48,589 bases of DNA from Dehalococcoidia bacterium (GTDB lineage Bacteria > Chloroflexota > Dehalococcoidia > Lucifugimonadales > UBA3495), in contig JAJEDS010000190.1 in assembly GCA_022821365.1 (NCBI GenBank), positions 1-48,589 on the forward strand, written 5' to 3'. The translations under genes were made by a program, and so were the position numbers. Below, in pieces: positions 9,126 through 20,914 of the stretch; positions within the stretch are counted from its first letter, which is position 1; each line of letters opens with the position of its first letter. The notes under the pieces were generated by a model. The model saw nothing but the letters and a program-made list of their open reading frames with translations, made no database searches and was not told the origin of the DNA.

Positions 9126-10311
9126 GGTAAACCTTCCTCGGCCCCACCGTCTTCATATACCCTTCGAAGTTGCGGCGGGTTTCGGGGATGGAGTCGCCGC
9201 CGAACTTTTCCATGAAGGCGTCGGCCAGCACCAGGGCCACCATGGCCTCTCCGATTACCCCGGCCGGCGGGGCTTGGCAGACGTCGGAGCGTTCGAAGTG
9301 GGCCTGCACCGGTTCGCCGGTGTCCAGGTCCACCGAGGGCAGGGGGTTGTGCAGGGTGGCGATGGGCTTGATGCCGAAGCGGGCCACCAGGGGCATGCCG
9401 TCGGTCATGCCGCCCTCGGTGCCGCCGGCCCGGTTGGTCTTGCGCTGCCAGGGGTTGTCGGGGTCGGTTACCGGCTCGATAACGTCGTGGACTTCGGAAC
9501 CCCGCTTGTTGACCACCTCCCAACCGGGGCCGATGGAGACGTCCTTGACGGCGTTGATGGACATGAGGGCCTGGGCGATGCGGCCGTCAATCTTCTTGTC
9601 CCACTGGATGTGGGAACCCAGGCCGATGGGCACGTTCTCGGCAATGACCTCGACAGTGCCGCCCACCGTGTCGCCGGCGTCCCGGGCGGCGTCGACCTCG
9701 GCAATCATCTTCTGGGTGGCCTCGGGGTCGGCGCAACGCACCGGCGACTCCTCCACCGCGTCCCAGTCAATGGCGTCGTGGGTGTCGGGAGTGTCCGCCC
9801 ACACGCCGCCGATGGATATGACGTGGCTGTGGAGCCTGATGCCGAACTCCTCCAGCAGGCGCATGGCGATGGCGCCGGCGCCCACCCGCGCGGCAGTCTC
9901 CCGGGCGCTGGCCCGCTCCAGGACGTTACGCACGTCGGAGAAGCCGTACTTCATAGTCCCGGGCAGGTCGGCGTGGCCGGGTCTGATGCGGGTGACACGG
10001 CGATTGCGGCCCTCCTGGGAAGGATTCTCCACGTACTCCACGGCCATGGCCTCGGTCCAGTTAGCCCAGTCCTTGTTCTCAATGGTCATGCCGATGGGGC
10101 TTCCCAGGGTGAGGCCGTGGCGAACGCCGGTCATTATGTGGGCCCAGTCCTGTTCGATAAGTTGGCGGCCGCCCCGTCCGTAGCCGCGCTGCCGCCGGGC
10201 CAGTTGGGTGCCGATGTACTCCTCGCTGATGGGCAGGGCCGCGGGGACGCCCTCCATGATTATCACCAGGCCCTGGCCGTGGGACTCGCCTGCCGTAAAC
10301 CACCGGATCAT
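9121..10311 (-). CDS. aroC: Chorismate synthase
   Basis: The N-terminus FTAGESHG and the motifs RRQRGYGRGGRQ, RPGHAD and RSDVC are the canonical AroC pattern. 396 aa. Confidence 0.95.
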   Translation of the reverse strand: MIRWFTAGESHGQGLVIIMEGVPAALPISEEYIGTQLARRQRGYGRGGRQLIEQDWAHIMTGVRHGLTLGSPIGMTIENKDWANWTEAMAVEYVENPSQEGRNRRVTRIRPGHADLPGTMKYGFSDVRNVLERASARETAARVGAGAIAMRLLEEFGIRLHSHVISIGGVWADTPDTHDAIDWDAVEESPVRCADPEATQKMIAEVDAARDAGDTVGGTVEVIAENVPIGLGSHIQWDKKIDGRIAQALMSINAVKDVSIGPGWEVVNKRGSEVHDVIEPVTDPDNPWQRKTNRAGGTEGGMTDGMPLVARFGIKPIATLHNPLPSVDLDTGEPVQAHFERSDVCQAPPAGVIGEAMVALVLADAFMEKFGGDSIPETRRNFEGYMKTVGPRKVYR

Positions 10312-10453: not shown

Positions 10454-11308
10454 TCAGATGCGGGACTGCATGGCCCGGATTGCCGCTTCCAGCATTACCG
10501 GTACCGGCGCGGGCCGCTCCAGCCACATCTCAAAGGAGGCCGCCCCCTGGTAGACCAGCATTTCAATGCCGCCCAGGGTTTTTGCGCCGGCCTGGGCCGC
10601 TTCCCGCAGCAGACGGGTTTCGATGGGATTATACACCAGGTCATTGACCAGGGCCGTTGGTGGGATGGCGTCTCCGGGCAAGGGCGTTTCATCCTCACCA
10701 GGGCCGTGGGTCATGCCGATGGTGGTGCAATTGACGATGAGTTCGGCGGTGGCGGCGGATTCAATTAACTCGGGACCAGGAAGGGGTATGGGACTGGAGG
10801 TTATGCCCCGGTTCCGGGCCAGTTGGGCCAGGCTTTCCGCCCGTTCCGGGGTGCGGTTTGCGATGGTGAGGACGCCTACCCCTTCGCGAGCCAGGGCCAG
10901 AACCACGCCCCGGGCCGCGCCTCCGGCCCCCAGGACGAGGGTACGGCGTCCCCGGGGTTCAAAGCCCGCGCTTTCCCGCAAGGCCCGAAGGAAGCCGTAG
11001 CCGTCGGTGTTGTGGCCGGTGAGCCGCCCCTGCCGGTTGACGATGGTATTGACGGCGCCGGCCTCGGTGGCCCAGTCGTCAATTTCGTCCAGGAAGGGCA
11101 TCACCGCCAGCTTGTGCGGGACGGTTACGTTGATGCCCAGGACGGCGGGCTGGCGCAGGCCGTTGACGAACTCCTCAACCTCGTCCGGCGCCACCTGGTA
11201 CGCCATGTACCTGGCATCTACACCGCAGGCATCCAGCGCCGCCTGCTGAAACACAGGCGACATGGAATGCCCTATGGGGTAACCAATTATGCCAAGGGCG
11301 GTGTTCAT
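10454..11308 (-). CDS. aroE: Shikimate dehydrogenase
   Basis: N-terminus GIIGYPIGHSMSPVFQQAAL, plus NVTVPHK, NTDGYGF and the Rossmann motif LGAGGAARG. 284 aa. Confidence 0.93.
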   Translation of the reverse strand: MNTALGIIGYPIGHSMSPVFQQAALDACGVDARYMAYQVAPDEVEEFVNGLRQPAVLGINVTVPHKLAVMPFLDEIDDWATEAGAVNTIVNRQGRLTGHNTDGYGFLRALRESAGFEPRGRRTLVLGAGGAARGVVLALAREGVGVLTIANRTPERAESLAQLARNRGITSSPIPLPGPELIESAATAELIVNCTTIGMTHGPGEDETPLPGDAIPPTALVNDLVYNPIETRLLREAAQAGAKTLGGIEMLVYQGAASFEMWLERPAPVPVMLEAAIRAMQSRI

Positions 11309-11318
11309 TTGAAGGGAG

Positions 11319-11362
11319 CCCTCACCCCCGGCCCCTCTCCCTCAGGGAGAGGGGAGTATTCT
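11319..11362 (+). repeat. Intergenic hairpin repeat, family B variant
   Basis: ccctcacccccggCCCCTCTCCCtcaGGGAGAGGGGagtattctc forms a perfect 10-bp stem. Confidence 0.6.
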
Positions 11363-11429
11363 CATAAGTGAACATTCGTGACTATTCGTGGATAAATCCC
11401 TTCGCGGCCCTTCGTGTTCCTTCGTGGAT
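11363..11429 (+). repeat. ATTCGTG-repeat element, family A, long direct form
   Basis: CATAAGTGaacATTCGTGactATTCGTGGATAAATCCCTTCGCGGcccTTCGTGttccTTCGTGGAT. It is nearly colinear with 42343-42409. Confidence 0.8.
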
Positions 11430-11432
11430 TGA

Positions 11433-14126
11433 TTAACCGCCGAGTTGGGCCAGAATATCGCCCAGGCGTTGCTGCTGTTCCTGGAGGTTGCGCAAGCGGT
11501 CCTCCTCGGTTTCCACCACGTCGGGGCGGGCCTTGGCGCGGAAGTTGGGGTTGTTGACCAGCTTTTCCTTGCGCTCCAGTTCCCGTTCGGTGCTGGCCAG
11601 TTCCTCCCGCAGCCTGTCCTGCTCGGCGGCCAGATCCACCACCCCCTCCAGGGGCAGTCGCACCACCAGGGGATTTACCACCAGGGTAACGCCCCTGGTC
11701 TGCTCCGAATCCTCCGGAGCGCCGGAGGTAATGCTCAAGGGTTCCACCCGGGACAGGGTGCGGATTACCTCCGCCTCTTCTTCCATGGCTCGCCGCAGGC
11801 CGTTGGCCTCCACCTGGGCCTCCAGCCGCTGGTTGGCCGGAATACGAAGCTGGGCGCGGGTGTTGCGCACGGCGCGGATGGTCTGCATCACCAGGGAGAT
11901 TTCGTCCTCGGCCTGCCGGTCGTGGCGCGGAGACTCGGCCTGAGGGTAGTCGGCGACCATTATGGACGGGTCCAACTCTCCCTCAACAGGCAGGCAGGAG
12001 GTCAGGTTCCGCCAGATTTCCTCGGTAATGAAGGGCATGAAGGGATGCAGCAGGCGCAGGGTACGCTCCAGCACGTGGGCCAGCGCCGGACGGGGCGAGG
12101 GCCCTTCGCCGGAACGCATGCGCACCTTGGCCATTTCGATGTACCAGTCGCAGAAGTCGTCCCAGATGAAGTCGTACAGGCTCTGCTGTGCCTCGCCCAG
12201 TTCGAAGGCAGCCAGGGAGGCGTTGACGTCGGCAGTAACCCGGTCCAGCAGGCTGACGATCCAGCGGTCCTCCCGGTGCTCCAGGTTGGGCAGATCCCGC
12301 CAGCCGGCCAGGTCGTCCTGCCCCTCAAGGGAAGTAATGACGAAACGGGCGGCGTTCCATACCTTGTTGGCGAAGTTGCGGGCGGCCTCCAGCTTGCCCT
12401 CGGTGATGCGCAGGTCGTTGCCCGGGGCGGTGCCGGTGGACAGGGCAAAGCGGAGGGCGTCGGTGCCGTAGCGGTCGATAAGGTCCAGGGGATCCATAGT
12501 ATTGCCCCGGGTCTTGCTCATTTTTTCGCCGTTGGCGTCGCGGATCAGGCCGTGCAAGTACACCGTGCGGAAGGGAATATCCCCGGTGTTCTCGATGCCC
12601 ATCATAATCATGCGGGCCACCCAGAAAAAGAGGATGTCGTAGCCCGTTTCCATGACGGCGGTGGGGTAGAAGTAGCTGAAATCATCGGTGTCGTCGGGCC
12701 AGCCCAGGGTTGAATGAGGCCACAGGCCGGAACTGAACCAGGTATCCAGCACGTCCTCGTCCTGGCGCAGGCCCTCGGAATTGCAGGTGGGACAGGCGTT
12801 GGGATCTTCGGTAGAGACCACAATCTCGTCGCACTCGTCACAGTACCAAACGGGGATGCGGTGGCCCCACCATAGCTGGCGGCTGATGCACCAGTCCCGA
12901 ATGTTCTCCAACCAGTTGAGATAGACCCGGCCGAAACGGTCGGGGACTATGGTAATGTCACCCTTGGCCACGGCGGCGTGGGCGCGGCCGGCGATGGTGT
13001 CGGGCTCCTGGTGGCTGCCCACCTTGAGGAACCATTGCAGGCTGATGAGGGGTTCCACCACCGCGTCGCAGCGCTGGCAGTGGCCCACCGAATGGCGGTA
13101 GTCCTCCACCTTCTCCAGCAGGCCCAGGCTGTCCAGTTCCTCGGCCACGGCCTGGCGGGTGTCGAACCGCTCCCGCCCCTCATACTTGCCGGCCTGGTCG
13201 GTCATGTTGCCGTCAAAGCCAATGACGTTGATGATTTCCAGGCCGTGGCGTTCGCCAATCTCGAAGTCGGTAACGTCGTGCCCCGGGGTTACCTTCAGGG
13301 CGCCGGTGCCGAACTCCATCTCGATGGCCTCGTCGCCCACGATGGGGATGGGCCGGTCCATGATGGGCAACATGGCATCCTTGCCCACAAAGGCGGCATA
13401 GCGCGGGTCCTCTGGATGCACCGCCACGCCCGTGTCGCCCAGCATGGACTCGGGGCGGGTGGTGGCCACGGTTATGTGGCCGGTGCCGTCGGCCAGGGGG
13501 TAGCGGATGTAATAGAGCTTGCCGTCCTGCTCCTGGTATTCCACCTCCAGGTCGGAGAGGGCCGTGGCGCAGCGGGGACACCAGTTGATGATGCGCTCGT
13601 GCCTGTAAATGAGGCCCTTGTTGTACAGGTTGACAAAGGTGGTGCGGACGGCCCTGGCCGGGCCTGGGTCCAGGGTAAAGCGCAGGCGGGTCCAGTCGCA
13701 GGAGGTGCCCAGTCGCTTGTGCTGCTCGTCGATGGTGTTGCCGTAGCGGGCCACCCACTCCCAGATGCGCTCCTGGAACTTTTCGCGGCCCAGGTCGTGG
13801 CGATTGGTCCCCTCCTCGGCCAGCAGCCGCTCCACCACCCACTGGGTGGCAATGCCGGCGTGGTCCTTGCCCGGAAGCCACAGGGTATCGTCGCCCAGCA
13901 TACGGTGCCAGCGGGTCAGGGCATCCTCGATGGTGGCGGTAAGGGCGTGGCCCAGGTGCAGCTCACCGGTAACGTTGGGCGGCGGCATGATGATGACGAA
14001 GGGTTGGCGGCCTGGGCGTATTTGTGGCGTGAAGTAACCGGCATCCTGCCAGTCCTGGTAAATGCGCTGTTCCACGGATGCGGGATCATAGGCGCGGGGG
14101 ATCTCGGCGGGGGCGCTGGAGGTCAT
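11433..14126 (-). CDS. valS: Valine--tRNA ligase
   Basis: 897 aa. It has the class I HIGH motif (PNVTGELHLGHA), KMSKT (EKMSKTRGN) and a C-terminal coiled coil, with a ValRS-type N-terminus (YDPASVEQRIYQDW). Confidence 0.95.
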   Translation of the reverse strand: MTSSAPAEIPRAYDPASVEQRIYQDWQDAGYFTPQIRPGRQPFVIIMPPPNVTGELHLGHALTATIEDALTRWHRMLGDDTLWLPGKDHAGIATQWVVERLLAEEGTNRHDLGREKFQERIWEWVARYGNTIDEQHKRLGTSCDWTRLRFTLDPGPARAVRTTFVNLYNKGLIYRHERIINWCPRCATALSDLEVEYQEQDGKLYYIRYPLADGTGHITVATTRPESMLGDTGVAVHPEDPRYAAFVGKDAMLPIMDRPIPIVGDEAIEMEFGTGALKVTPGHDVTDFEIGERHGLEIINVIGFDGNMTDQAGKYEGRERFDTRQAVAEELDSLGLLEKVEDYRHSVGHCQRCDAVVEPLISLQWFLKVGSHQEPDTIAGRAHAAVAKGDITIVPDRFGRVYLNWLENIRDWCISRQLWWGHRIPVWYCDECDEIVVSTEDPNACPTCNSEGLRQDEDVLDTWFSSGLWPHSTLGWPDDTDDFSYFYPTAVMETGYDILFFWVARMIMMGIENTGDIPFRTVYLHGLIRDANGEKMSKTRGNTMDPLDLIDRYGTDALRFALSTGTAPGNDLRITEGKLEAARNFANKVWNAARFVITSLEGQDDLAGWRDLPNLEHREDRWIVSLLDRVTADVNASLAAFELGEAQQSLYDFIWDDFCDWYIEMAKVRMRSGEGPSPRPALAHVLERTLRLLHPFMPFITEEIWRNLTSCLPVEGELDPSIMVADYPQAESPRHDRQAEDEISLVMQTIRAVRNTRAQLRIPANQRLEAQVEANGLRRAMEEEAEVIRTLSRVEPLSITSGAPEDSEQTRGVTLVVNPLVVRLPLEGVVDLAAEQDRLREELASTERELERKEKLVNNPNFRAKARPDVVETEEDRLRNLQEQQQRLGDILAQLGG

Positions 14127-14176
14127 GGAAACTCTCCCTGATTAAAGCGGGTTGCGGATAGGGTTAAGCGAATCCG

Positions 14177-14200
14177 TTACGAACTGGCCTTGTTTCGTAA
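14177..14200. promoter_or_regulatory. Perfect 7-bp inverted repeat in the divergent valS/ATPase intergenic region (operator-like)
   Basis: TTACGAA (14177-14183), 10 nt, TTCGTAA (14194-14200). Confidence 0.3.
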
Positions 14201-14338
14201 TTTGGTACCGAAAATATACCATTGGGGGAGTGGGGGCGTCTATTGGGGGGAATGGCCTCAATGCTAAACTATGTCCAGAATCTGAGACTCCACGACGCGA
14301 CGGCACTCCCTCAAGACATCACGGCGGGAGCAGGGAAA

Positions 14339-15445
14339 ATGTACCGCAGCTTCACCATCAAAAATTTCCGGTGCTTCGACGAGTTAACCGTGGAAGGCAT
14401 GGGCCGAATAAACCTGATTGCGGGCAAGAACAACGTGGGGAAGACAGCGTTGCTGGAGGCGTTGTGGGTGCATAGTGGGGCCGTAAATCCGGATTTGGCC
14501 GTGAGAATCGATTCTTTCAGGGGATTGGAACAGCAGACTCTGGAGAGCTTTCTCGGAAGTTTGTTCAGGGGATTTGACCGCGAACTGACCATAGAAATAT
14601 GCAGCACAGGTGATTGGGAGGACTCACCTTTCTACCATAAAATCTATTTCGAAGACGGTTCATCCTTCGAGATGCCATTGGCTGGTCCTGAAAATGACCA
14701 GCTATCACTATTCCAGAATTCTTCTATTGCAATGCGTGCAAGCCAGGTAGTCGTTATGGAATACTCTGATGGTATGGGCGAGAAGACTATCGCCAAAGGA
14801 AGGTTAGTTGCCCGCCAGTTGGGTCCGGTCCAAGATGTAGGTCTAGAGGTAGCTTTCGAAACAGGCCAACCTTTACAAGACCATGCGAGAGCAATATTTC
14901 TCGCAGCGAGACGAGCATCTGTAGGTCTGGAAGACGTGAATCGCTACAGCGAACTGGAAGTCAATGGCGAGGCGGACGGCGTACTTGAAATCCTGCAATG
15001 CGTTGAACCGGAACTGAAGAGGCTTGCGGTTGTTTCTGCAAGGCAAGCTCCGAGCATTTACGCTGATGTTGGCAGAGGGAGGCTTATTCCCATTCAACTC
15101 TTAGGGGACGGAATGTCTCGCATCCTATCTCTGGCACTGGCCATTGCCAGTGCCCCAGAAGGCAATGTGATGGTGGACGAAATCGAAAACGGCGTCCACC
15201 ACTCGGTGATGGAAAAGGTGTGGAAGGCCATTGGGGCCTTTGCCCGCAGTTATGACGTGCAGATTTTTGCCACCACCCACAGCTACGAGTGTATCGGGGC
15301 GGCCTACCGGGCCTTTGAGTCGGACGAGGAGGACGAACTGCGGCTGTTTCGTATTGAGCGGAGCCCTGAAGGCAAGTATAGGGCGGTGAAGTTCGACCGG
15401 GAGCGTATCGGATCTGCTTACCAGTTCAATATGGACGTGATTTAA
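14339..15445 (+). CDS. ABC/SMC-like AAA ATPase (AAA_15/AAA_21 type)
   Basis: ATG 14339 follows GGGAG. The ORF is open from 14222, so an earlier start is possible. Motifs: Walker A GKNNVGKT (14423-14446), signature-like LGDGMSRIL, Walker B VMVDEIENGVH (from 15167) and H-loop-like ATTHS (from 15269). Confidence 0.8.
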   Translation: MYRSFTIKNFRCFDELTVEGMGRINLIAGKNNVGKTALLEALWVHSGAVNPDLAVRIDSFRGLEQQTLESFLGSLFRGFDRELTIEICSTGDWEDSPFYHKIYFEDGSSFEMPLAGPENDQLSLFQNSSIAMRASQVVVMEYSDGMGEKTIAKGRLVARQLGPVQDVGLEVAFETGQPLQDHARAIFLAARRASVGLEDVNRYSELEVNGEADGVLEILQCVEPELKRLAVVSARQAPSIYADVGRGRLIPIQLLGDGMSRILSLALAIASAPEGNVMVDEIENGVHHSVMEKVWKAIGAFARSYDVQIFATTHSYECIGAAYRAFESDEEDELRLFRIERSPEGKYRAVKFDRERIGSAYQFNMDVI

Positions 15446-16023
15446 TGGTGCAATGGGGTCAGGGCAGAGAAATGCCTGCCGTCAGTAGCGGCAGGCAACT
15501 GCTTGTCGAGGGGCGGGAGGAAGTACAGTTCTTTCAGGCTTTTTTAAGACACCTGGGAATAGGCGATATTCAAATACGGGACTATGAAGGAAAAGACAAT
15601 CTTCGCAGGTATCTCCTTTCCTTTACCGGCCTCAATGATTTTGTCCATGTTCGATCTGTCGCCATAGTCAGAGACGCCGATGACAACGCTCCCTCGGCGC
15701 TGCAGAGCGTCCAGGACAGTTTGCGGAACGCAGAGTTATCCGTGCCCAGGGGATTCACCACCCCGTCGGACGGTCCCCCGCGAATATCCATATTCATCAT
15801 GCCCGACAACCACAGCGCCGGCGCCCTGGAACAGCTATGCCTTTCCGCGCTGGCGGACGACTCCGCAATGTCCTGCGTGGACGATTTTCTTCGATGCGTC
15901 AACGACAGGGTTGTAGACCCGCCGAAGGACCACCAAAAAGCCCGCATCCACGCCTTCCTGGCATCCCGCCAAGACCCTGAATTACGCCTTGGGGAGGCCG
16001 CCCAGCGGGGCTACATCCCCTAG
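15445..16023 (+). CDS. Small TOPRIM-like protein (DUF4435/DUF3226/DUF4276/RloB-like pattern)
   Basis: The ATG overlaps the upstream stop (TAATG at 15443-15447). It has LLVEGREE (Glu codon 15508-15510) and IVRDADDN (DxD, 15673-15684). 192 aa. An alternative start is M10 at 15472. Confidence 0.6.
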   Translation: MVQWGQGREMPAVSSGRQLLVEGREEVQFFQAFLRHLGIGDIQIRDYEGKDNLRRYLLSFTGLNDFVHVRSVAIVRDADDNAPSALQSVQDSLRNAELSVPRGFTTPSDGPPRISIFIMPDNHSAGALEQLCLSALADDSAMSCVDDFLRCVNDRVVDPPKDHQKARIHAFLASRQDPELRLGEAAQRGYIP

Positions 16024-16387
16024 TCCCACCCCTCCTTTGCCCAACTAACCCAGTTCCTTAAATCCCTTTAGCCGCCGCCTGACCCGACCTACGCCCAATT
16101 GGCGCCTCGTCAATGCGCTATTCGACGGGAATTCCTTTTGTTGCTTCCCCCGCGTTGCCTTAACTTATGAACAACCTGCCATAACTGCGGGTGTATAATC
16201 AGATAGTAGCGTCGCCTGTCCCACAATTTGCCCATAATTACGTTTTATCATATGGCAGGCGGCGGCAGGCGGCCACGAAAAGGATTTTTGGCTAGTCGCT
16301 TCTCCCCAACAATAGAAGGGTTTCCGAAGGCAACCCGAGAGCGTCAACCAGTTGAACGTGTTTTCCAGTTCCATTCCCGGTATTGCA

Positions 16388-18832
16388 ATGCTCATTCGAT
16401 CCGGTGGCGCCACTGTCCCCCTTTTCCTCGCCGGCTTCTTCCTGATTTTCCTGGTTTCCTTCCTCTTGCTAGTCCCTGGCGGCCCGCCGTCGCCGTTGGA
16501 AGCCCAGACTGATCCCCAGATGGAATGCCCTGATTCCGGGAATTGTGAACCTAACGTAGAGGCCGACTCTCGAACTCCTGCAGCCAACACAAGCTACGAA
16601 GTGTCCTTCAGGACTCCGGTGGCAATTGCACCTCTAACCGACAGCATAGTCATGGAGCTGCACGAGGACATACGGGTGCCTCGGGCGATCATACCCGCGC
16701 TGGTGAGGGTCCAGTACGAGTCAAATGGTGCGCCAAATGGCGAAAGGGGCAGAGGGGTCGCGACCGATGTTTCTCTGAACGACCAGAACGACCCACGTCA
16801 CCCTACCACCGTCAGGATTACGCACGGAATTCGGTCTGCAGGAGAAAATGGGAGTCCAGTCGTTATCCCTGCTAACGCCACCGTCACCGTAATTTTCGAC
16901 AAGAACGCCGGCATTTCCAACCCCACCGAGGGCGGCGCTTTTTCCTGGAAAGTAGGCGTGGGAGACGACGAAAACCTGGTGGATGCCAAGCACCCCGACG
17001 TTGACGTGCGCAAGGCCTTTTTGGCCGCCTCGGGCGCTGTCGAAGATGCCGATGTCGGCCTGCTGGTGGACCGGGAAATACAGTTGAGCCACGAGGAGAT
17101 CAGCCGAGGCCAGTCCCTCACCGTCATCGCCCGGGGCTTCAAGAACGGCCATACCCTGACGGTGTGGCGGGACGCGAATGTCAACGGCATGCGGGAAACC
17201 GGAGAAAGCGACCTTTGCCAGGTGTTGGTGGAGGGCAATGACATCGGCTATTGCAACTTTAACGTCCATTCGCCGCCTTTTTCGGCCGGATTTGGAGAGT
17301 GCACCGACGAGTCAAAGCTGGACTGCAATTTCATCAACGCGGTGGACGGCCTTAGCGGATCTTCGGTTATAGTGATGGATGAAGATGATCCAAGCTCCAT
17401 TTACGAAGCCGATCAGATACTGGAACTGGTGGGCCGGATTGAGGCCGATATCGTCCAGGGGCCGGGTGGCGATATCCAGGTGCAGTTAATCGACTTCCCA
17501 GAAGGTGTGATAACTGCCGTTACCATTGGCGGGGTACCCGCGGAAGTGGACCAACTTAGGATCGGTCCTTCGGGCAGGCTCTATTTCAGCGTTCCGGTTC
17601 CCGATGAAGTTCGCCTGGGCCGGCAATATCTGCGGGTCGAAGTGGACAGAGTCGACAATCTGGAGCCTGACCCCTACTCTCGTGAAGTTATAATTGACAT
17701 CTCCCAGCCAAAGGCCATAGTCCGTATCTTCCCCGAGACGGTGCTGGCCAATCAACGGGTTTCCCTGTCGGGCCTTGGCTTTCACGATGAACGTGGAACG
17801 ACAATCGAAGAAGTCCGCTTTGGCGGTTACACGCTCAAGCCTTCCCGGGTCAACGGGGGTGTTGGAACCATAGACGTAGCTGGGGACGGCAATTGGAACG
17901 GATCGGTGGATTTGCCCATTGTGGAGGCCACCACCTCAGAAGGGACCCACACCCTGCGGGCAAAGGACAGTCGGGGCCGCACCTGTTCGGTGGAGGTCAC
18001 CGTGCCCCCCAGGCAAGTGACGGTCTCGCCCATCTGGGGCCGGCCGGGGACCACGATCGAGGTAACCGGCACGGGTTTCCCCAGCCGCAACGACCACGGC
18101 TCCAGTGTCAACCTGCGCATCTACTACGATGCCGGAGACCGCTTCACAGTCAATTTCGCCGAGCCCGACGCCAACGGGAACTTCTCCCGGGAAATACTGA
18201 TTCCCCTGAAGACACCCACCCCTTCTTCCAATTTTGTCCGAGTTGAATTTGACGATGACAACGGTATAACCGTGGTAACATCGGCGCCCCATGAAGTGCC
18301 CGGGGCAGTGGTCCGGCTTAGCCCCAACGTCGGGCCCCCAGGGACTCGCTTCACCATGAGGGGGGCCGGATTCAGGCATCACATACCGGTGTCCCTGGTA
18401 GAGTTTTCCGATATCGACGTTTCACCCGGTCACGGGGTTTCGACCGACGCCAACGGCGAGTTTGAAGTGGACCTGGTGGCTCCCGGCCTGGATACAGGTC
18501 AGCAGACCGTACGGGCCACTGTGGCCGGGGTCACCGCCAGCGCTACCTTCTACATGAAACCGCCCGGAGTCGTACCCGGGTCTCCGACTCCGGTGGCAAG
18601 AGCGCTGGAGGGCCTGGGTGACCGGCTCCTTCGAGTCTTCCACTTCAACAACGACACCAAGGTCTGGGCCTTCTACGCCCCGGCGGTGGCTGGCGACAGC
18701 ACTTTAGACTTGATGGTTGAAGGGGAAACCTATTTGGTTCTGGTCAGCGAGACGACGCAAGCCATCCTGAACGGAGAGTCCCGGAACCTGTCCTGTTACC
18801 AGGGCAACTGCTGGAACCAGATAGTGTGGTAA
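16388..18832 (+). CDS. Large secreted or membrane-anchored surface protein with repeated IPT/TIG-like Ig-fold modules and a conserved Cys-containing C-terminal domain
   Basis: The ORF is open from TTG 16352. ATG 16388 gives MLIRSGG followed by a hydrophobic segment (PLFLAGFFLIFLVSFLLLV). At least four G.GF modules are present: SLTVIARGFKNG, RVSLSGLGFHDE, TIEVTGTGFPSR and RFTMRGAGFRHH. The C-terminus is shared with 20276-20914. Confidence 0.7.
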   Translation: MLIRSGGATVPLFLAGFFLIFLVSFLLLVPGGPPSPLEAQTDPQMECPDSGNCEPNVEADSRTPAANTSYEVSFRTPVAIAPLTDSIVMELHEDIRVPRAIIPALVRVQYESNGAPNGERGRGVATDVSLNDQNDPRHPTTVRITHGIRSAGENGSPVVIPANATVTVIFDKNAGISNPTEGGAFSWKVGVGDDENLVDAKHPDVDVRKAFLAASGAVEDADVGLLVDREIQLSHEEISRGQSLTVIARGFKNGHTLTVWRDANVNGMRETGESDLCQVLVEGNDIGYCNFNVHSPPFSAGFGECTDESKLDCNFINAVDGLSGSSVIVMDEDDPSSIYEADQILELVGRIEADIVQGPGGDIQVQLIDFPEGVITAVTIGGVPAEVDQLRIGPSGRLYFSVPVPDEVRLGRQYLRVEVDRVDNLEPDPYSREVIIDISQPKAIVRIFPETVLANQRVSLSGLGFHDERGTTIEEVRFGGYTLKPSRVNGGVGTIDVAGDGNWNGSVDLPIVEATTSEGTHTLRAKDSRGRTCSVEVTVPPRQVTVSPIWGRPGTTIEVTGTGFPSRNDHGSSVNLRIYYDAGDRFTVNFAEPDANGNFSREILIPLKTPTPSSNFVRVEFDDDNGITVVTSAPHEVPGAVVRLSPNVGPPGTRFTMRGAGFRHHIPVSLVEFSDIDVSPGHGVSTDANGEFEVDLVAPGLDTGQQTVRATVAGVTASATFYMKPPGVVPGSPTPVARALEGLGDRLLRVFHFNNDTKVWAFYAPAVAGDSTLDLMVEGETYLVLVSETTQAILNGESRNLSCYQGNCWNQIVW

Positions 18833-18890
18833 TTTCCTGCGCTGCCAGTCCTGGACCAAGGTCCTGAAGCGACTGTCGAATAAATAGCTT

Positions 18891-18921
18891 GCCGCCGCTT
18901 CTGTTCAACAGAAGCGGCGGC
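18891..18921. terminator. Bidirectional terminator hairpin between convergent genes
   Basis: GCCGCCGCTTCTG-ttcaa-CAGAAGCGGCGGC forms a perfect 13-bp stem. The flanks are T/A-rich (aataaatagctt before it, gtcctcttc after it). Confidence 0.7.
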
Positions 18922-18951
18922 GTCCTCTTCAGGGCGTCCTGCCTGGTCAGG

Positions 18952-19596
18952 CTAAACTGCTCGCGCCCTGGGTTCCAGCACCGTAACCTGCATGTTGGGC
19001 GGCAGGTTGCCGGTGGTGACCGTCAGGCTGCGGCGGGGCTGGACTTCGCTAACGCCCATCAACTGCAGGAAGGTGTCCAGGTTGCCCAGGGGTTCGGTGG
19101 CGCCCGGTATCTGGTAGTGCATGGGGATGACGATCTTCGGGTCCAGGTCCTGCATCAATTGCAGAATGCGCTCCAGGTCCAGCGTGCAGCCGCCGCCGGC
19201 CGGCGCCAGCAGCACGTCCACCGGCTGAAGCTCCTCCACCTGACGCGTGGTCAAGGGTGTGGCGATGTCCCCCAGGTGGCACACGTTGACGTTGTCCATC
19301 ACGATGGAATAGGCCACGTTGCGCTCCTTCTGGGGCTGCCCTTCCTTCAGGGTGGTCATAACGCCCCGGGCCGCTACTCCAGAGTACTCATACTCCCCGG
19401 GGGCGTCGAACACCTTGGGCGCCCCGCCCACTTCCAGGCGGTTACTGTGGTTGGGGTGGGTGTTGCTGATGGTTACCACGGTGGCTTGCCGGTTTTCGGG
19501 GCGGAGACCCAGGGAAGAGGGGAAGGGGTCAGTTACAACCACCAGGTCGTCGGAACGCAGTCGGAAGCAGGCGTGGCCCAGCCAGGTAATTTCCAT
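18952..19596 (-). CDS. MBL-fold metal-dependent hydrolase (UPF0173-like)
   Basis: N-terminus MEITWLGHACFRL...VVTDPF, which is the typical UPF0173/MBL pattern. 214 aa. It starts 4 nt after the bioY stop. Confidence 0.8.
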   Translation of the reverse strand: MEITWLGHACFRLRSDDLVVVTDPFPSSLGLRPENRQATVVTISNTHPNHSNRLEVGGAPKVFDAPGEYEYSGVAARGVMTTLKEGQPQKERNVAYSIVMDNVNVCHLGDIATPLTTRQVEELQPVDVLLAPAGGGCTLDLERILQLMQDLDPKIVIPMHYQIPGATEPLGNLDTFLQLMGVSEVQPRRSLTVTTGNLPPNMQVTVLEPRARAV

Positions 19597-19600
19597 AGTC

Positions 19601-20215
19601 TTATTGATCCCTTCCCTTCACCAGATTCACCAGTTTCCAGGCCCCCGGCAGCAGCAGGGAAGCCGCAACCAGCTTGACCGCGTCCCCCACAACGAAGGGA
19701 TACAGTCCCCACTCCAAGGTGGTAGCCCAGCGACTCTCCGCCGGCGCGAAGGTGGTCAGCCATAGCAGCCCCGGCACGTAGAGGATTACGTTTCCGGCCA
19801 GCATTGCCAACAGGATCTGGGGCCTGCGGTCCCAGCCCCTTTCCGCCAGCCATCCCACGGCAAAGGCCGCCGGAATGAACCCAACGATGTAACCACCCGA
19901 GGCGATGCTCCCCACGAAGCCCGAAGCGCCGCCGGCGTAAAAGGGCAGCCAGGTGCCCGCCACCAGGTACAGCAACAACGCCGACGCGCCACGCCAGCTG
20001 CCCAGGCTGGCGCCCACCAGCAGTACCGCAAAGGTCTGGCCCGTTATGGGCACCGGCGTGAACCCGAGGGGTATCTTAACCTGGGCCAGCAGGGCAACCA
20101 ACAGGCAACCCCCGATTACCAGGGCCAGGTCGCGGGTGATTCGGCGGGCGCCGTCGCCGACGGGGAGGACGGCATCGGCCAGCACCGGCCAGGATTGCTG
20201 TGCTCTAGCGTTCAA
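19601..20215 (-). CDS. bioY: Biotin transporter BioY
   Basis: Polytopic membrane protein containing VPITGQTFAVLLVGASLG, the BioY hallmark. The start is uncertain: TTG at 20215 or a downstream GTG. Confidence 0.8.
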   Translation of the reverse strand: MNARAQQSWPVLADAVLPVGDGARRITRDLALVIGGCLLVALLAQVKIPLGFTPVPITGQTFAVLLVGASLGSWRGASALLLYLVAGTWLPFYAGGASGFVGSIASGGYIVGFIPAAFAVGWLAERGWDRRPQILLAMLAGNVILYVPGLLWLTTFAPAESRWATTLEWGLYPFVVGDAVKLVAASLLLPGAWKLVNLVKGRDQ

Positions 20216-20275: not shown

Positions 20276-20914
20276 TCAAGGCCAGACTACCTTGTTCCAG
20301 CAGTCGCCATCGTCGCAACTCAGTTCCAGTTGTTGCCCATTCACTATTAAGGTAACGGATTCCGTTACCAGAATCAAATAGGTCTGGCCCGAAGCCACGG
20401 CCTTCAACGTGCTCTCCTCAGGCACCAGGGGATCGTAGTAGATGAATTCACCCGTTTCCTGTACCCAGTGCCACACCCTTAAGAACTTGTTCCCCAGGGG
20501 CGCCATTGCATCGGTTACGGGCACGGGGACCGCTGCATCTGCGATTTCCGTTTCCGGTGAGGGAGACCCTGCATTACCTTCCTGGTCAGCCATTCTTTGG
20601 GGAGCAATGGACTGGGGAGCAATGGACGTTGGGAAATCGGGGGAAGCAGCTTCTGGCGTGGCTTGGGCCGGGGGTGTGTCGGGTTCGGCCACAACCGCAT
20701 TGCCCGCGGACGACTGCAACGGCACAAGGGTAGGGGCGTTAATTGTTTCAGCTTGCTGCGCCACACTGCCCTGGGGAAAACCGAGACTCCATTGGTACGC
20801 CTGGTTTGGCCCCGGGGGAACGAGATACACCGCCGTGCGCACCGCGCCCGTAACCAGCAGAATTGCTCCAATAGCCAGCAGGACCGTATTCCCCACGTTT
20901 AGAGCCATTGCCAT
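20276..20914 (-). CDS. Membrane-anchored protein with a low-complexity linker and the same C-terminal Cys-containing domain as 16388-18832
   Basis: ATG 20914. There is one N-terminal TM segment (VLLAIGAILLVTGAV) and a Pro/Ala-rich linker. The C-terminus FLRVWHW...YYDP...STL...GQTYLILVTES...NGQQLELSCDDGDCWNKVVW aligns with the end of the 826-aa protein. Confidence 0.7.
   Translation of the reverse strand: MAMALNVGNTVLLAIGAILLVTGAVRTAVYLVPPGPNQAYQWSLGFPQGSVAQQAETINAPTLVPLQSSAGNAVVAEPDTPPAQATPEAASPDFPTSIAPQSIAPQRMADQEGNAGSPSPETEIADAAVPVPVTDAMAPLGNKFLRVWHWVQETGEFIYYDPLVPEESTLKAVASGQTYLILVTESVTLIVNGQQLELSCDDGDCWNKVVWP

Follow-up and report, generated by a model that had tools for sequence, protein, structure and literature searches.

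The stretch of DNA analysed here (the window) is the 48,589-nt contig JAJEDS010000190.1 of a Dehalococcoidia bacterium (Chloroflexota; assembly GCA_022821365.1). At positions 14339-16023 of its plus strand it carries two overlapping open reading frames (ORFs), predicted to encode an ABC ATPase (ORF1) and a small Toprim protein of the DUF3226 family (ORF2). ABC ATPases paired with Toprim nucleases, as in OLD, Gabija, PARIS and AbiL, are a major theme of bacterial immunity, and the pair described here matches both components of PDC-M38, a candidate defence system of the PADLOC collection. By analogy with the characterised systems we consider it fairly probable that the pair works as a Toprim toxin or abortive-infection module under the control of its ATPase. 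Most informative among the new observations are the nonsense codon that cuts short the putative effector gene, the hypervariable insert of the ATPase, and a series of deletions and a replacement at one and the same chromosomal site in related genomes.

ORF1 (14339-15445; 368 amino acids, aa) runs from the ATG at 14339 to the TAA at 15443-15445, and ORF2 (15445-16023; 192 aa) from the ATG at 15445 to the TAG at 16021-16023. The stop codon of the first gene and the start codon of the second overlap in the sequence TAATG (15443-15447, plus strand), an arrangement typical of translational coupling. An earlier note on this DNA had given the coordinates and lengths of both ORFs, their overlap and the positions of the motifs described below, and each was found where it had been placed. 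A possible extension of ORF1 starts at an in-frame TTG (14222); the ATG at 14339, which has a purine-rich GGGAG...AGGGAA shortly before it, was favoured over it because the N-terminus of the family aligns from MYRSF.

The first protein is a predicted ABC ATPase of the AAA_15/AAA_21 type, as had been proposed, and resembles AbiLi. Both Pfam models match (AAA_15 at 1.3e-19, AAA_21 at 4.7e-19), and two PADLOC models cover the protein over its length: PDC-M38A (PDLC04611; 8.5e-58, residues 1-367, profile 1-382 of 383) and AbiLi (PDLC02336; 2.6e-55, residues 1-365, profile 1-337 of 340). The AriA models gave partial matches in two segments (1.9e-24 and 1.5e-19) that are much weaker than these, the PADLOC model of PtuA gave a partial match, also weaker than those to PDC-M38A and AbiLi, and GajA was matched weakly and in part (7e-13). 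In sequence searches of the PDB nothing beyond Rad50, OLD and PtuA was matched, each weakly and at the N-terminus. The homologues at related loci align with ORF1 from end to end, and ORF1 contains, all on the plus strand, (i) a Walker A motif (P-loop), GKNNVGKT (14423-14446), whose columns are more than 90% conserved among 55 family members; (ii) an ABC signature-like sequence, LGDGMSRIL (15101-15127), seen in the sequence and in the family alignment; (iii) a Walker B/D-loop, VMVDEIENGVH (15167-15199), of which DEIENG is nearly invariant in the family; and (iv) an H-loop, ATTHS (15269-15283), likewise nearly invariant.

The partner types suggested beforehand for the second gene were DUF4435, DUF3226, DUF4276 and RloB, and it is DUF3226 (PF11536) that matches ORF2, at 3.2e-30 and 105.9 bits against a gathering cut-off of 27 (residues 17-189, profile 2-187 of 208). 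The PADLOC models of PDC-M38B match over residues 16-188 (PDLC04624 at 1e-14, PDLC04623 at 5.5e-12). At E<=1, neither DUF4435 nor RloB was matched in Pfam, and neither an AbiLii model nor AriB was matched in PADLOC; NCBIfam gave no match to ORF2, and a sequence search of the PDB with ORF2 alone found nothing. With the profile of the whole DUF3226 family, the sole PDB chain found was PH0156 (2p62; E=1.3e-4).

An AlphaFold2 model of ORF2, built on 39 homologues, is confident (pLDDT, or predicted local distance difference test, of 91.6; predicted template modelling score, pTM, 0.86) and comprises a strand-helix Toprim-like core followed by helices. Its best Foldseek matches in the PDB are the C-terminal Toprim and helical regions of class 2 OLD nucleases (Xcc 6njx and 6njv, Bp 6nk8), with E-values of 5e-4 to 4e-3, probabilities of 0.99-1.0, alignments of about 200 columns and template modelling (TM) scores of 0.43-0.48; the remaining matches are weak and generic Rossmann-like. 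The model of a full-length homologue, P0003 (pLDDT 92.9), extends the alignment with the OLD C-terminus to 227-233 columns, and the two models taken together match class 2 OLD with probabilities of 0.98-1.0 and TM scores of 0.41-0.50. The minimal TOPRIM signature that had been read from the second gene is thus borne out by the conserved Glu22 and DxD, by the confident model and by class 2 OLD as the best structural match.

Conservation across the 39 homologues falls on the residues expected of such a site. E22, G23, D77, A78, E129 and K165 are invariant, and D79 is conserved in at least 90% of the family. On the plus strand, Glu22 (codon 15508-15510) and the acidic E25 and E26 lie within VEGREE (15508-15522), E22 and E26 being the proposed counterparts of E400 and E404 of Bp OLD; the DxD motif, D77-A78-D79, occupies 15673-15681 (DADD, through D80, 15673-15684); and the helical domain contributes E129, C132, C144, C151 and K165 (15829-15939), all invariant. 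In the model, helix 128-135 has E129 at its start, and helix 163-173 contains K165. The two-metal site of Bp OLD consists of E400, E404, D455-x-D457, T506 and E508 (in the first helix of the helical domain) and K562 (PMC6755086). We propose that E22, E26, D77xD79, E129 (as a metal-B ligand) and K165 (as the counterpart of K562) may be equivalent to this site, because the residues follow in the same order and lie in corresponding secondary-structure elements. On these grounds ORF2 is a predicted stand-alone OLD-type Toprim nuclease and the proposed effector or toxin of the pair, and ORF1 its proposed sensor, scaffold and antitoxin-like regulator.

The helical part of DUF3226 has a further feature of its own: C132, C144 and C151 are invariant and H169 is nearly invariant (window 15838-15954). 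This Cys/His set may bind a metal or respond to redox state.

The pairing of the two proteins is obligate and coupled. A DUF3226-based scan of 185,579 species genomes yielded 59 loci, mostly in Dehalococcoidia and other Chloroflexota and also in Latescibacterota, Planctomycetota, Poribacteria, Sumerlaeota, Nostocaceae and Desulfomonilaceae; in about 55 of the 59 an ORF1 homologue lies immediately upstream of the DUF3226 gene. Stop and start are -4 to +2 nt apart in 46 out of 50 related loci, the ATPase and DUF3226 trees are congruent in their major groups, and no third conserved gene was found at the pair loci. The DUF3226 family as a whole is large, with 6,048 representatives of 50%-identity clusters at E<=1e-3 (3,664 at E<=1e-10), and its members are almost all stand-alone proteins of 200-215 aa. 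The sole locus without tight coupling is L045 of Latescibacterota, in which about 20 tandem 7-nt units (GACGTAA/GACGTGA; ~9780-9965) part the ATPase gene from the DUF3226 gene by 185 nt.

How such a pair might act can be sketched from its characterised relatives. An oligomer of the ATPase would bind the Toprim nuclease and hold it inactive; the ATPase insert (residues ~60-200, described below) would recognise an invader-derived trigger; ATP binding or hydrolysis would then free or activate the nuclease; and the two-metal site (E22, E26, D77xD79, E129 and K165) would cut tRNA or DNA, with arrest of the infected cell or destruction of the invader as the outcome. Regulation by protein-protein contact, the sensing of a trigger, the substrate and the role in defence are all proposed here by analogy. 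This reading is preferred because of two precedents. In PARIS, whose ATPase insert regions are thought to recognise triggers, AriA sequesters the Toprim nuclease AriB in a complex that releases it on a trigger, and the freed AriB cleaves tRNA (PMC11464382). In addition, AAA proteins neutralise Toprim_OLD toxins, as found for two validated pairs in toxicity-neutralisation assays (PMC10440598).

Several points weigh against a defence module of this kind. The likeness of ORF2 to OLD is moderate (TM about 0.45, identity 14-16%), and the Pfam model OLD-like_TOPRIM (PF20469) stays below threshold (16.8 vs 23.2 bits, E=0.01). The effector gene in the window is truncated, so that the activity of the local copy is doubtful. 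Throughout the clade the pair is fixed beside valS, an uncommon state for mobile defence cargo. No PADLOC match (E<=1e-8) was obtained with the other 39 large ORFs of the 48.6-kb window, which are housekeeping genes; the pair does sit alone between valS and a surface-protein gene, as the first description had it. Among 142 neighbours at 45 distant loci (three genes on each side of the pair, called by a crude longest-ORF heuristic), PADLOC matches were sporadic and Pfam matches mostly housekeeping or miscellaneous, and no strong enrichment was seen. A tblastn search of 50,697 phage records gave no match, and neither was there a significant match among predicted viral structures. The 145 PDC systems are, in the words of their authors, untested candidates, and HEC-01, an Hma-embedded pair of an ATPase and a TOPRIM protein, showed no protective effect in the only published assay (bioRxiv 10.1101/2024.01.29.577857). 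The weak association with defence islands is not decisive, because candidates derived from embedded copies associate less with other defence systems, according to the same authors (bioRxiv 10.1101/2024.01.29.577857).

The truncation of ORF2 is due to a nonsense codon. Homologues are 203-208 aa long and end in the pattern ...RGYIPW(N/D)xxAFxxLxxFLxxL, and their alignment places the premature TAG (16021-16023, plus strand) at the position of the conserved Trp codon TGG. The window reads ...RGYIP-TAG-SHPSFAQLTQFLKSL-TAG, and homologues read ...RGYIPWNHSAFAQLAQFLQAL; in-frame translation thus leaves 15 stranded codons (16024-16068) and the original stop codon (16024-16071 in all, plus strand) beyond the TAG, which correspond to the C-terminal amphipathic helix of the family. 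The TAG is not an assembly error, because an independent 825-nt metagenome contig of another sample (L148), identical to the window at 823 of 825 nt, carries it too. The change from TGG to TAG costs ORF2 15 conserved residues, including the invariant F198, and in the model of the full-length homologue P0003 the absent segment is the confident helix 196-207 (pLDDT 95-96). In class 2 (Bp) OLD, the C-terminal amphipathic helix packs in a hydrophobic groove of the Toprim sheet (PMC6755086); by analogy, its loss plausibly destabilises or attenuates ORF2. The local copy may be attenuated or on the path to the loss that sister genomes have undergone.

All of this, together with the closest relatives, in which the pair is mostly or wholly gone, fits the explanation that the module in the window is a decaying pseudogene remnant, with its effector inactivated and the locus without function. 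That explanation is independent of the other readings, and we regard it as a serious possibility for this copy, with a chance somewhat below even. It has to be reconciled with a truncated ORF2 that is still modelled confidently and keeps all the putative catalytic residues, and with a family member, P0014, that likewise lacks most of the C-terminal helix. The ORF2 change appears recent, because the 45 nt that follow the TAG show no decay and ORF1 remains whole, with all its motifs, so that any inactivation would be recent as well. Moreover, the TAG allele occurs in a second sample at a distance of two single-nucleotide polymorphisms, which indicates that it is carried by a living population.

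The most variable part of the pair is an insert in the ATPase, residues ~60-200 (14516-14938, plus strand), delimited by its identity and by its profile of G+C at third codon positions (GC3). Relatives whose ValS is 92-95% identical share only 20-45% identity with it, against 80-100% in the flanking lobes, and its GC3 is 30-55% vs 60-80% in the rest of ORF1. The G+C content is 48.3% at 14519-14938, and 45.0% at 14641-14700 and 43.3% at 14701-14760 vs 60.0% at 13981-14040, in agreement with the hand counts of the earlier note (about 43-45% and 60%); that of ORF1 as a whole is 51.9%, against 64.6% for valS and 60.1% for the whole window. The insert is a plausible specificity or trigger-recognition region. 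The A+T-rich middle of the gene had been taken as a sign of either horizontal acquisition or a fast-evolving variable region. The latter holds, given the identity of the insert, and recent horizontal transfer was rejected as the cause of the low G+C, because the sequences of the valS-linked Dehalococcoidia clade form a single group for both proteins, which indicates long residence beside valS.

Within this clade the trees of the two proteins differ in detail: the ATPase of the window groups with L008 and L009, and its DUF3226 protein with L001 and L007, an incongruence that is only a hint of recombination, because the trees are neighbour-joining trees without bootstrap. Genomes that share 81-95% identity in ValS share 44-82% in the ATPase and 47-73% in the DUF3226 protein. 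The pair evolves 3-5 times faster than its flanks, synonymous sites included, and differences at 4-fold sites amount to 0.48-0.71 in the pair vs 0.19-0.49 in aroC, aroE, valS, the Lactamase_B gene and bioY. Raw 4-fold differences were relied on because synonymous divergence (dS) above ~1.5 is saturated and some NG86 estimates failed. The ratio of nonsynonymous to synonymous divergence (dN/dS) of the pair against its relatives is 0.05-0.19, so both proteins are under overall purifying selection. The excess of synonymous divergence tentatively suggests old alleles, or recombination between diverged alleles.

Every relative whose ValS is at least 80% identical has the pair, or a remnant of it, at the same place, divergent from valS. 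Whether the pair is variably present there, a point raised in the earlier note, can be answered in the affirmative. In L051 (ValS 95% identical) a clean deletion corresponds to window positions 14357-15812, homology running to 14356; in L063 an internal deletion spares the ATPase gene only at its 5' end and the DUF3226 gene only at its 3' end; and in L065 (ValS 94%) homology runs to 14247 and positions 14248-15936 are replaced by 2.06 kb (L065 7940-10000), with the last ~28 codons of DUF3226 surviving. The replacing segment encodes DUF5131 and GMT-wHTH proteins that match PDC-M30B (1.9e-96) and PDC-M30A (8.5e-72). On account of these deletions and of the PDC-M30 replacement, the valS-adjacent site behaves as a small variable hotspot. 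A metagenome scan with the ValS N-terminus added two more contigs of the clade, one of them with usable flanks; genomes with complete loss escape the DUF3226-based scan, and the frequency of loss in the clade is accordingly poorly sampled. Beyond the valS-linked clade the pair is not beside valS, and lineages with ValS ~60% identical lack it there. A frameshift in the ATPase gene of L002 (8900-10001), which splits it into two ORFs, was not counted as the mark of a pseudogene, as the contig is labelled 5x coverage and otherwise identical contigs are intact; it is probably a sequencing or assembly error.

A position so stable beside valS, with a single group in both trees and purifying selection on both genes, could also be expected of a lineage-specific housekeeping module for repair or recombination, RecF/RecR- or Rad50/Mre11-like and inherited vertically. 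The mainly housekeeping neighbours, the weak N-terminal matches of ORF1 to RecF and Rad50, and a PolX-type polymerase gene that lies near the pair in the clade and directly adjacent to it in five other Chloroflexota loci are consistent with this idea. Yet the recF model TIGR00611, with a cut-off of 172 bits, scores 35.9 bits and aligns only with the N-terminal 43 residues, RecR is unmatched, and the best family matches are to models of defence systems. The pair diverges far faster than any flanking housekeeping gene, its distribution is patchy (one in 5,426 E. coli, on a small plasmid; absence beside valS in the lineages with ValS ~60% identical), and it is deleted, internally deleted, replaced or truncated (L051, L063, L065 and the window) among genomes with ValS 80-95% identical, that is, dispensable. 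We therefore hold a housekeeping role to be very improbable.

The toxin or abortive-infection reading has to be weighed also against simple addiction, for which the distant pairs are instructive. A 3,793-bp ColE1-type mobilizable plasmid of Salmonella and E. coli (L146; NZ_AP026957.1, with further records CP056813.1 and NZ_JBQXPE010000005.1) carries, apart from mobA and rop, nothing but a homologous pair, whose two proteins match PDC-M38 and whose ATPase is 27% identical to ORF1 over its full length. Among complete E. coli genomes the pair is present in one of 5,426, on a small plasmid. Another distant pair lies on a Plesiomonas megaplasmid, after P2-like tail genes. As the sole cargo of a 3.8-kb mobilizable plasmid, the pair would make sense as a selfish toxin-antitoxin module, devoid of any immune role and kept since loss of the antitoxin is lethal. 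AAA:Toprim_OLD pairs do act as toxin-antitoxin systems in neutralisation assays (PMC10440598), the pair is solitary in its housekeeping surroundings, and the mutated putative toxin beside an intact ATPase in the window is the order of decay expected of a toxin-antitoxin pair. Simple addiction, however, would not lead one to expect that the putative antitoxin has a hypervariable insert or that synonymous sites diverge 3-5 times more than in the flanks; a sister genome has another phage-defence candidate at the same site, and the ATPase-first order with tight coupling is that of the defence systems PARIS and AbiL. Pure addiction is thus improbable in our view, although addiction and defence are not mutually exclusive.

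A more far-reaching interpretation can be set beside these. The alleles appear older than the flanking genome, their synonymous divergence being 3-5 times higher. The pair might represent a distinct fifth OLD-like class, with a split ATPase and a minimal Toprim nuclease marked by three invariant Cys and a nearly invariant His. In this clade it might at the same time be no mobile cargo but an immune locus long settled on the chromosome, its polymorphism maintained by balancing or diversifying selection, with the insert as its specificity determinant, in a phage-interaction hotspot that includes the hypervariable surface-protein gene and undergoes occasional cassette swaps (PDC-M38 for PDC-M30). 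We offer this combined proposal as speculative and rather unlikely.

As regards the surroundings of the pair, valS (11433-14126, minus strand) is divergent from it, and the valS/ORF1 intergenic region (14127-14338) presumably contains both promoters. Scans for promoters and terminators gave no more matches than expected by chance, including one weak sigma-70-like match on the minus strand in this region. There are no tRNA genes in the window and, therefore, no tRNA-linked island signature. Just inside ORF2, a 9-bp perfect inverted repeat, TGCCTGCCG...CGGCAGGCA (15473-15497), begins one base into an alternative ATG (Met10, 15472-15474). This hairpin was rejected as a conserved translational regulator: it is allele-specific (folding z=-2.2) and absent in 13 relatives.

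Downstream of the pair an 826-aa surface-like protein with an IPT/TIG domain is encoded at 16352-18832. It is hypervariable among the relatives (45-78% identity, elevated dS), and it shares a similar C-terminal module with two Cys with a 212-aa protein (20276-20914), the modules ending in ...NLSCYQGNCWNQIVW and ...ELSCDDGDCWNKVVWP, respectively. The gene order following the pair is surface protein (plus strand), Lactamase_B (minus) and BioY (minus) in the window (16024-20215), L051 and L065, and a 260-aa gene, S1, PolX, HrcA, BioY (plus), Lactamase_B (plus) and surface protein (minus) in L001 (10624-20627); from this difference between the window and L001 an inversion or rearrangement breakpoint is placed just downstream of ORF2. 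The PolX-type gene (HHH_8, DNA_pol_B_thumb and PHP domains) lies within ~3 kb of the pair in the valS-linked clade (L001 13695-15521) and directly convergent with DUF3226 in the five other Chloroflexota loci (L036, L037, L039, L044 and L047, ~10530-12300), which may reflect coincidence, old synteny or a functional link. At the other end of the window, an ORF at 36-1187 weakly matches a reductive dehalogenase subunit (Pfam Dehalogenase, 1.7e-9), which fits the Dehalococcoidia origin of the contig.

The DUF3226 branch, with its ~6,000 sequence clusters, has been catalogued only as a candidate. To this the present locus adds (i) structural and residue-level evidence that DUF3226 may be a minimal OLD-type catalytic module, (ii) a hypervariable insert in the partner ATPase, plausibly a specificity region, and (iii) a natural series of intact, truncated, deleted and replaced alleles at one syntenic site in uncultivated Dehalococcoidia. 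Together, the module, the insert and the series point to a dispensable, conflict-driven function. As a kind of system the pair is not new, and its copy in the window may be defective; the homologous pair on the 3.8-kb enterobacterial plasmid is a convenient experimental model for the family.

Among known systems, PDC-M38 is the one to which the pair belongs. A PADLOC search, which the earlier note had recommended, matched both components, ORF1 as a full-length PDC-M38A and ORF2 as PDC-M38B, in the same adjacent and co-oriented arrangement. The definition of the PDC families rests on copies that lie inside BREX, DISARM or type I restriction-modification systems (Payne et al., bioRxiv 10.1101/2024.01.29.577857), whereas the pair in the window is solitary and chromosomal beside valS, and its B gene is truncated. 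The suggestion that it might be a minimal, undescribed variant does not hold: the family is already catalogued, since the pair matches Pfam DUF3226 and PADLOC PDC-M38, although a full-text literature search found no paper naming DUF3226 or PDC-M38. HEC-01 has the same two-gene architecture, with matches (HEC-01A at 6.2e-12, HEC-01B at 0.015) far weaker than those to PDC-M38. PH0156 of Pyrococcus horikoshii (2p62) is a solved DUF3226 protein, and the profile match to it spans the VEG Toprim strand and the RDxD region; it is very distant in sequence and falls outside the top 50 Foldseek matches.

The PARIS/OLD/AbiL-like character ascribed to the locus at the outset was right as to architecture and wrong as to membership. 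AbiL of Lactococcus lactis is likewise a two-gene operon, in which the gene of an ABC ATPase precedes that of a small Toprim/OLD-like partner, and ORF1 matches AbiLi; AbiLii, however, is of the RloB type (PMC10440598) and ORF2 is a DUF3226 protein, so that membership of AbiL was rejected on the partner. AbiL resides on a plasmid, and its abortive-infection phenotype has been demonstrated, whereas the pair described here is a candidate known from its genes. PARIS also has an AAA_15/21 ABC ATPase and, as a separate protein, a Toprim nuclease, but its AriA is ~55 kDa and its AriB ~35 kDa with DUF4435 (PMC11464382), compared with 368 aa and ~208 aa here; ORF2 matches neither DUF4435 nor AriB, on which ground PARIS membership was rejected, and no AriB structure was among the top 50 Foldseek matches of the ORF2 and P0003 models. 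The sole known link to PARIS is remote: the best HHpred match of a lactococcal AriB is PH0156, the founding DUF3226 structure (PMC11381338). Gabija was rejected as well, the pair being unfused, its match to GajA weak and partial, and no helicase gene adjoining it.

Class 2 OLD proteins (Bp 6nk8; Xcc 6njv, 6njw and 6njx) provide the only significant structural matches, in their Toprim and helical parts, and share with the DUF3226 family the proposed order of residues (Glu, Glu+4, DxD, a Glu at the first helix of the helical domain and a late Lys) and a C-terminal amphipathic helix. Canonical OLD membership was rejected, because OLD proteins of classes 1-3 join the ATPase and the Toprim nuclease in one polypeptide and the pair has them in separate ORFs; DUF3226 has, in addition, three invariant Cys of which the available part of the OLD active-site description makes no mention. 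By membership, then, the pair is PDC-M38/DUF3226, and in its predicted function it is most like PARIS, AbiL, OLD and Gabija.

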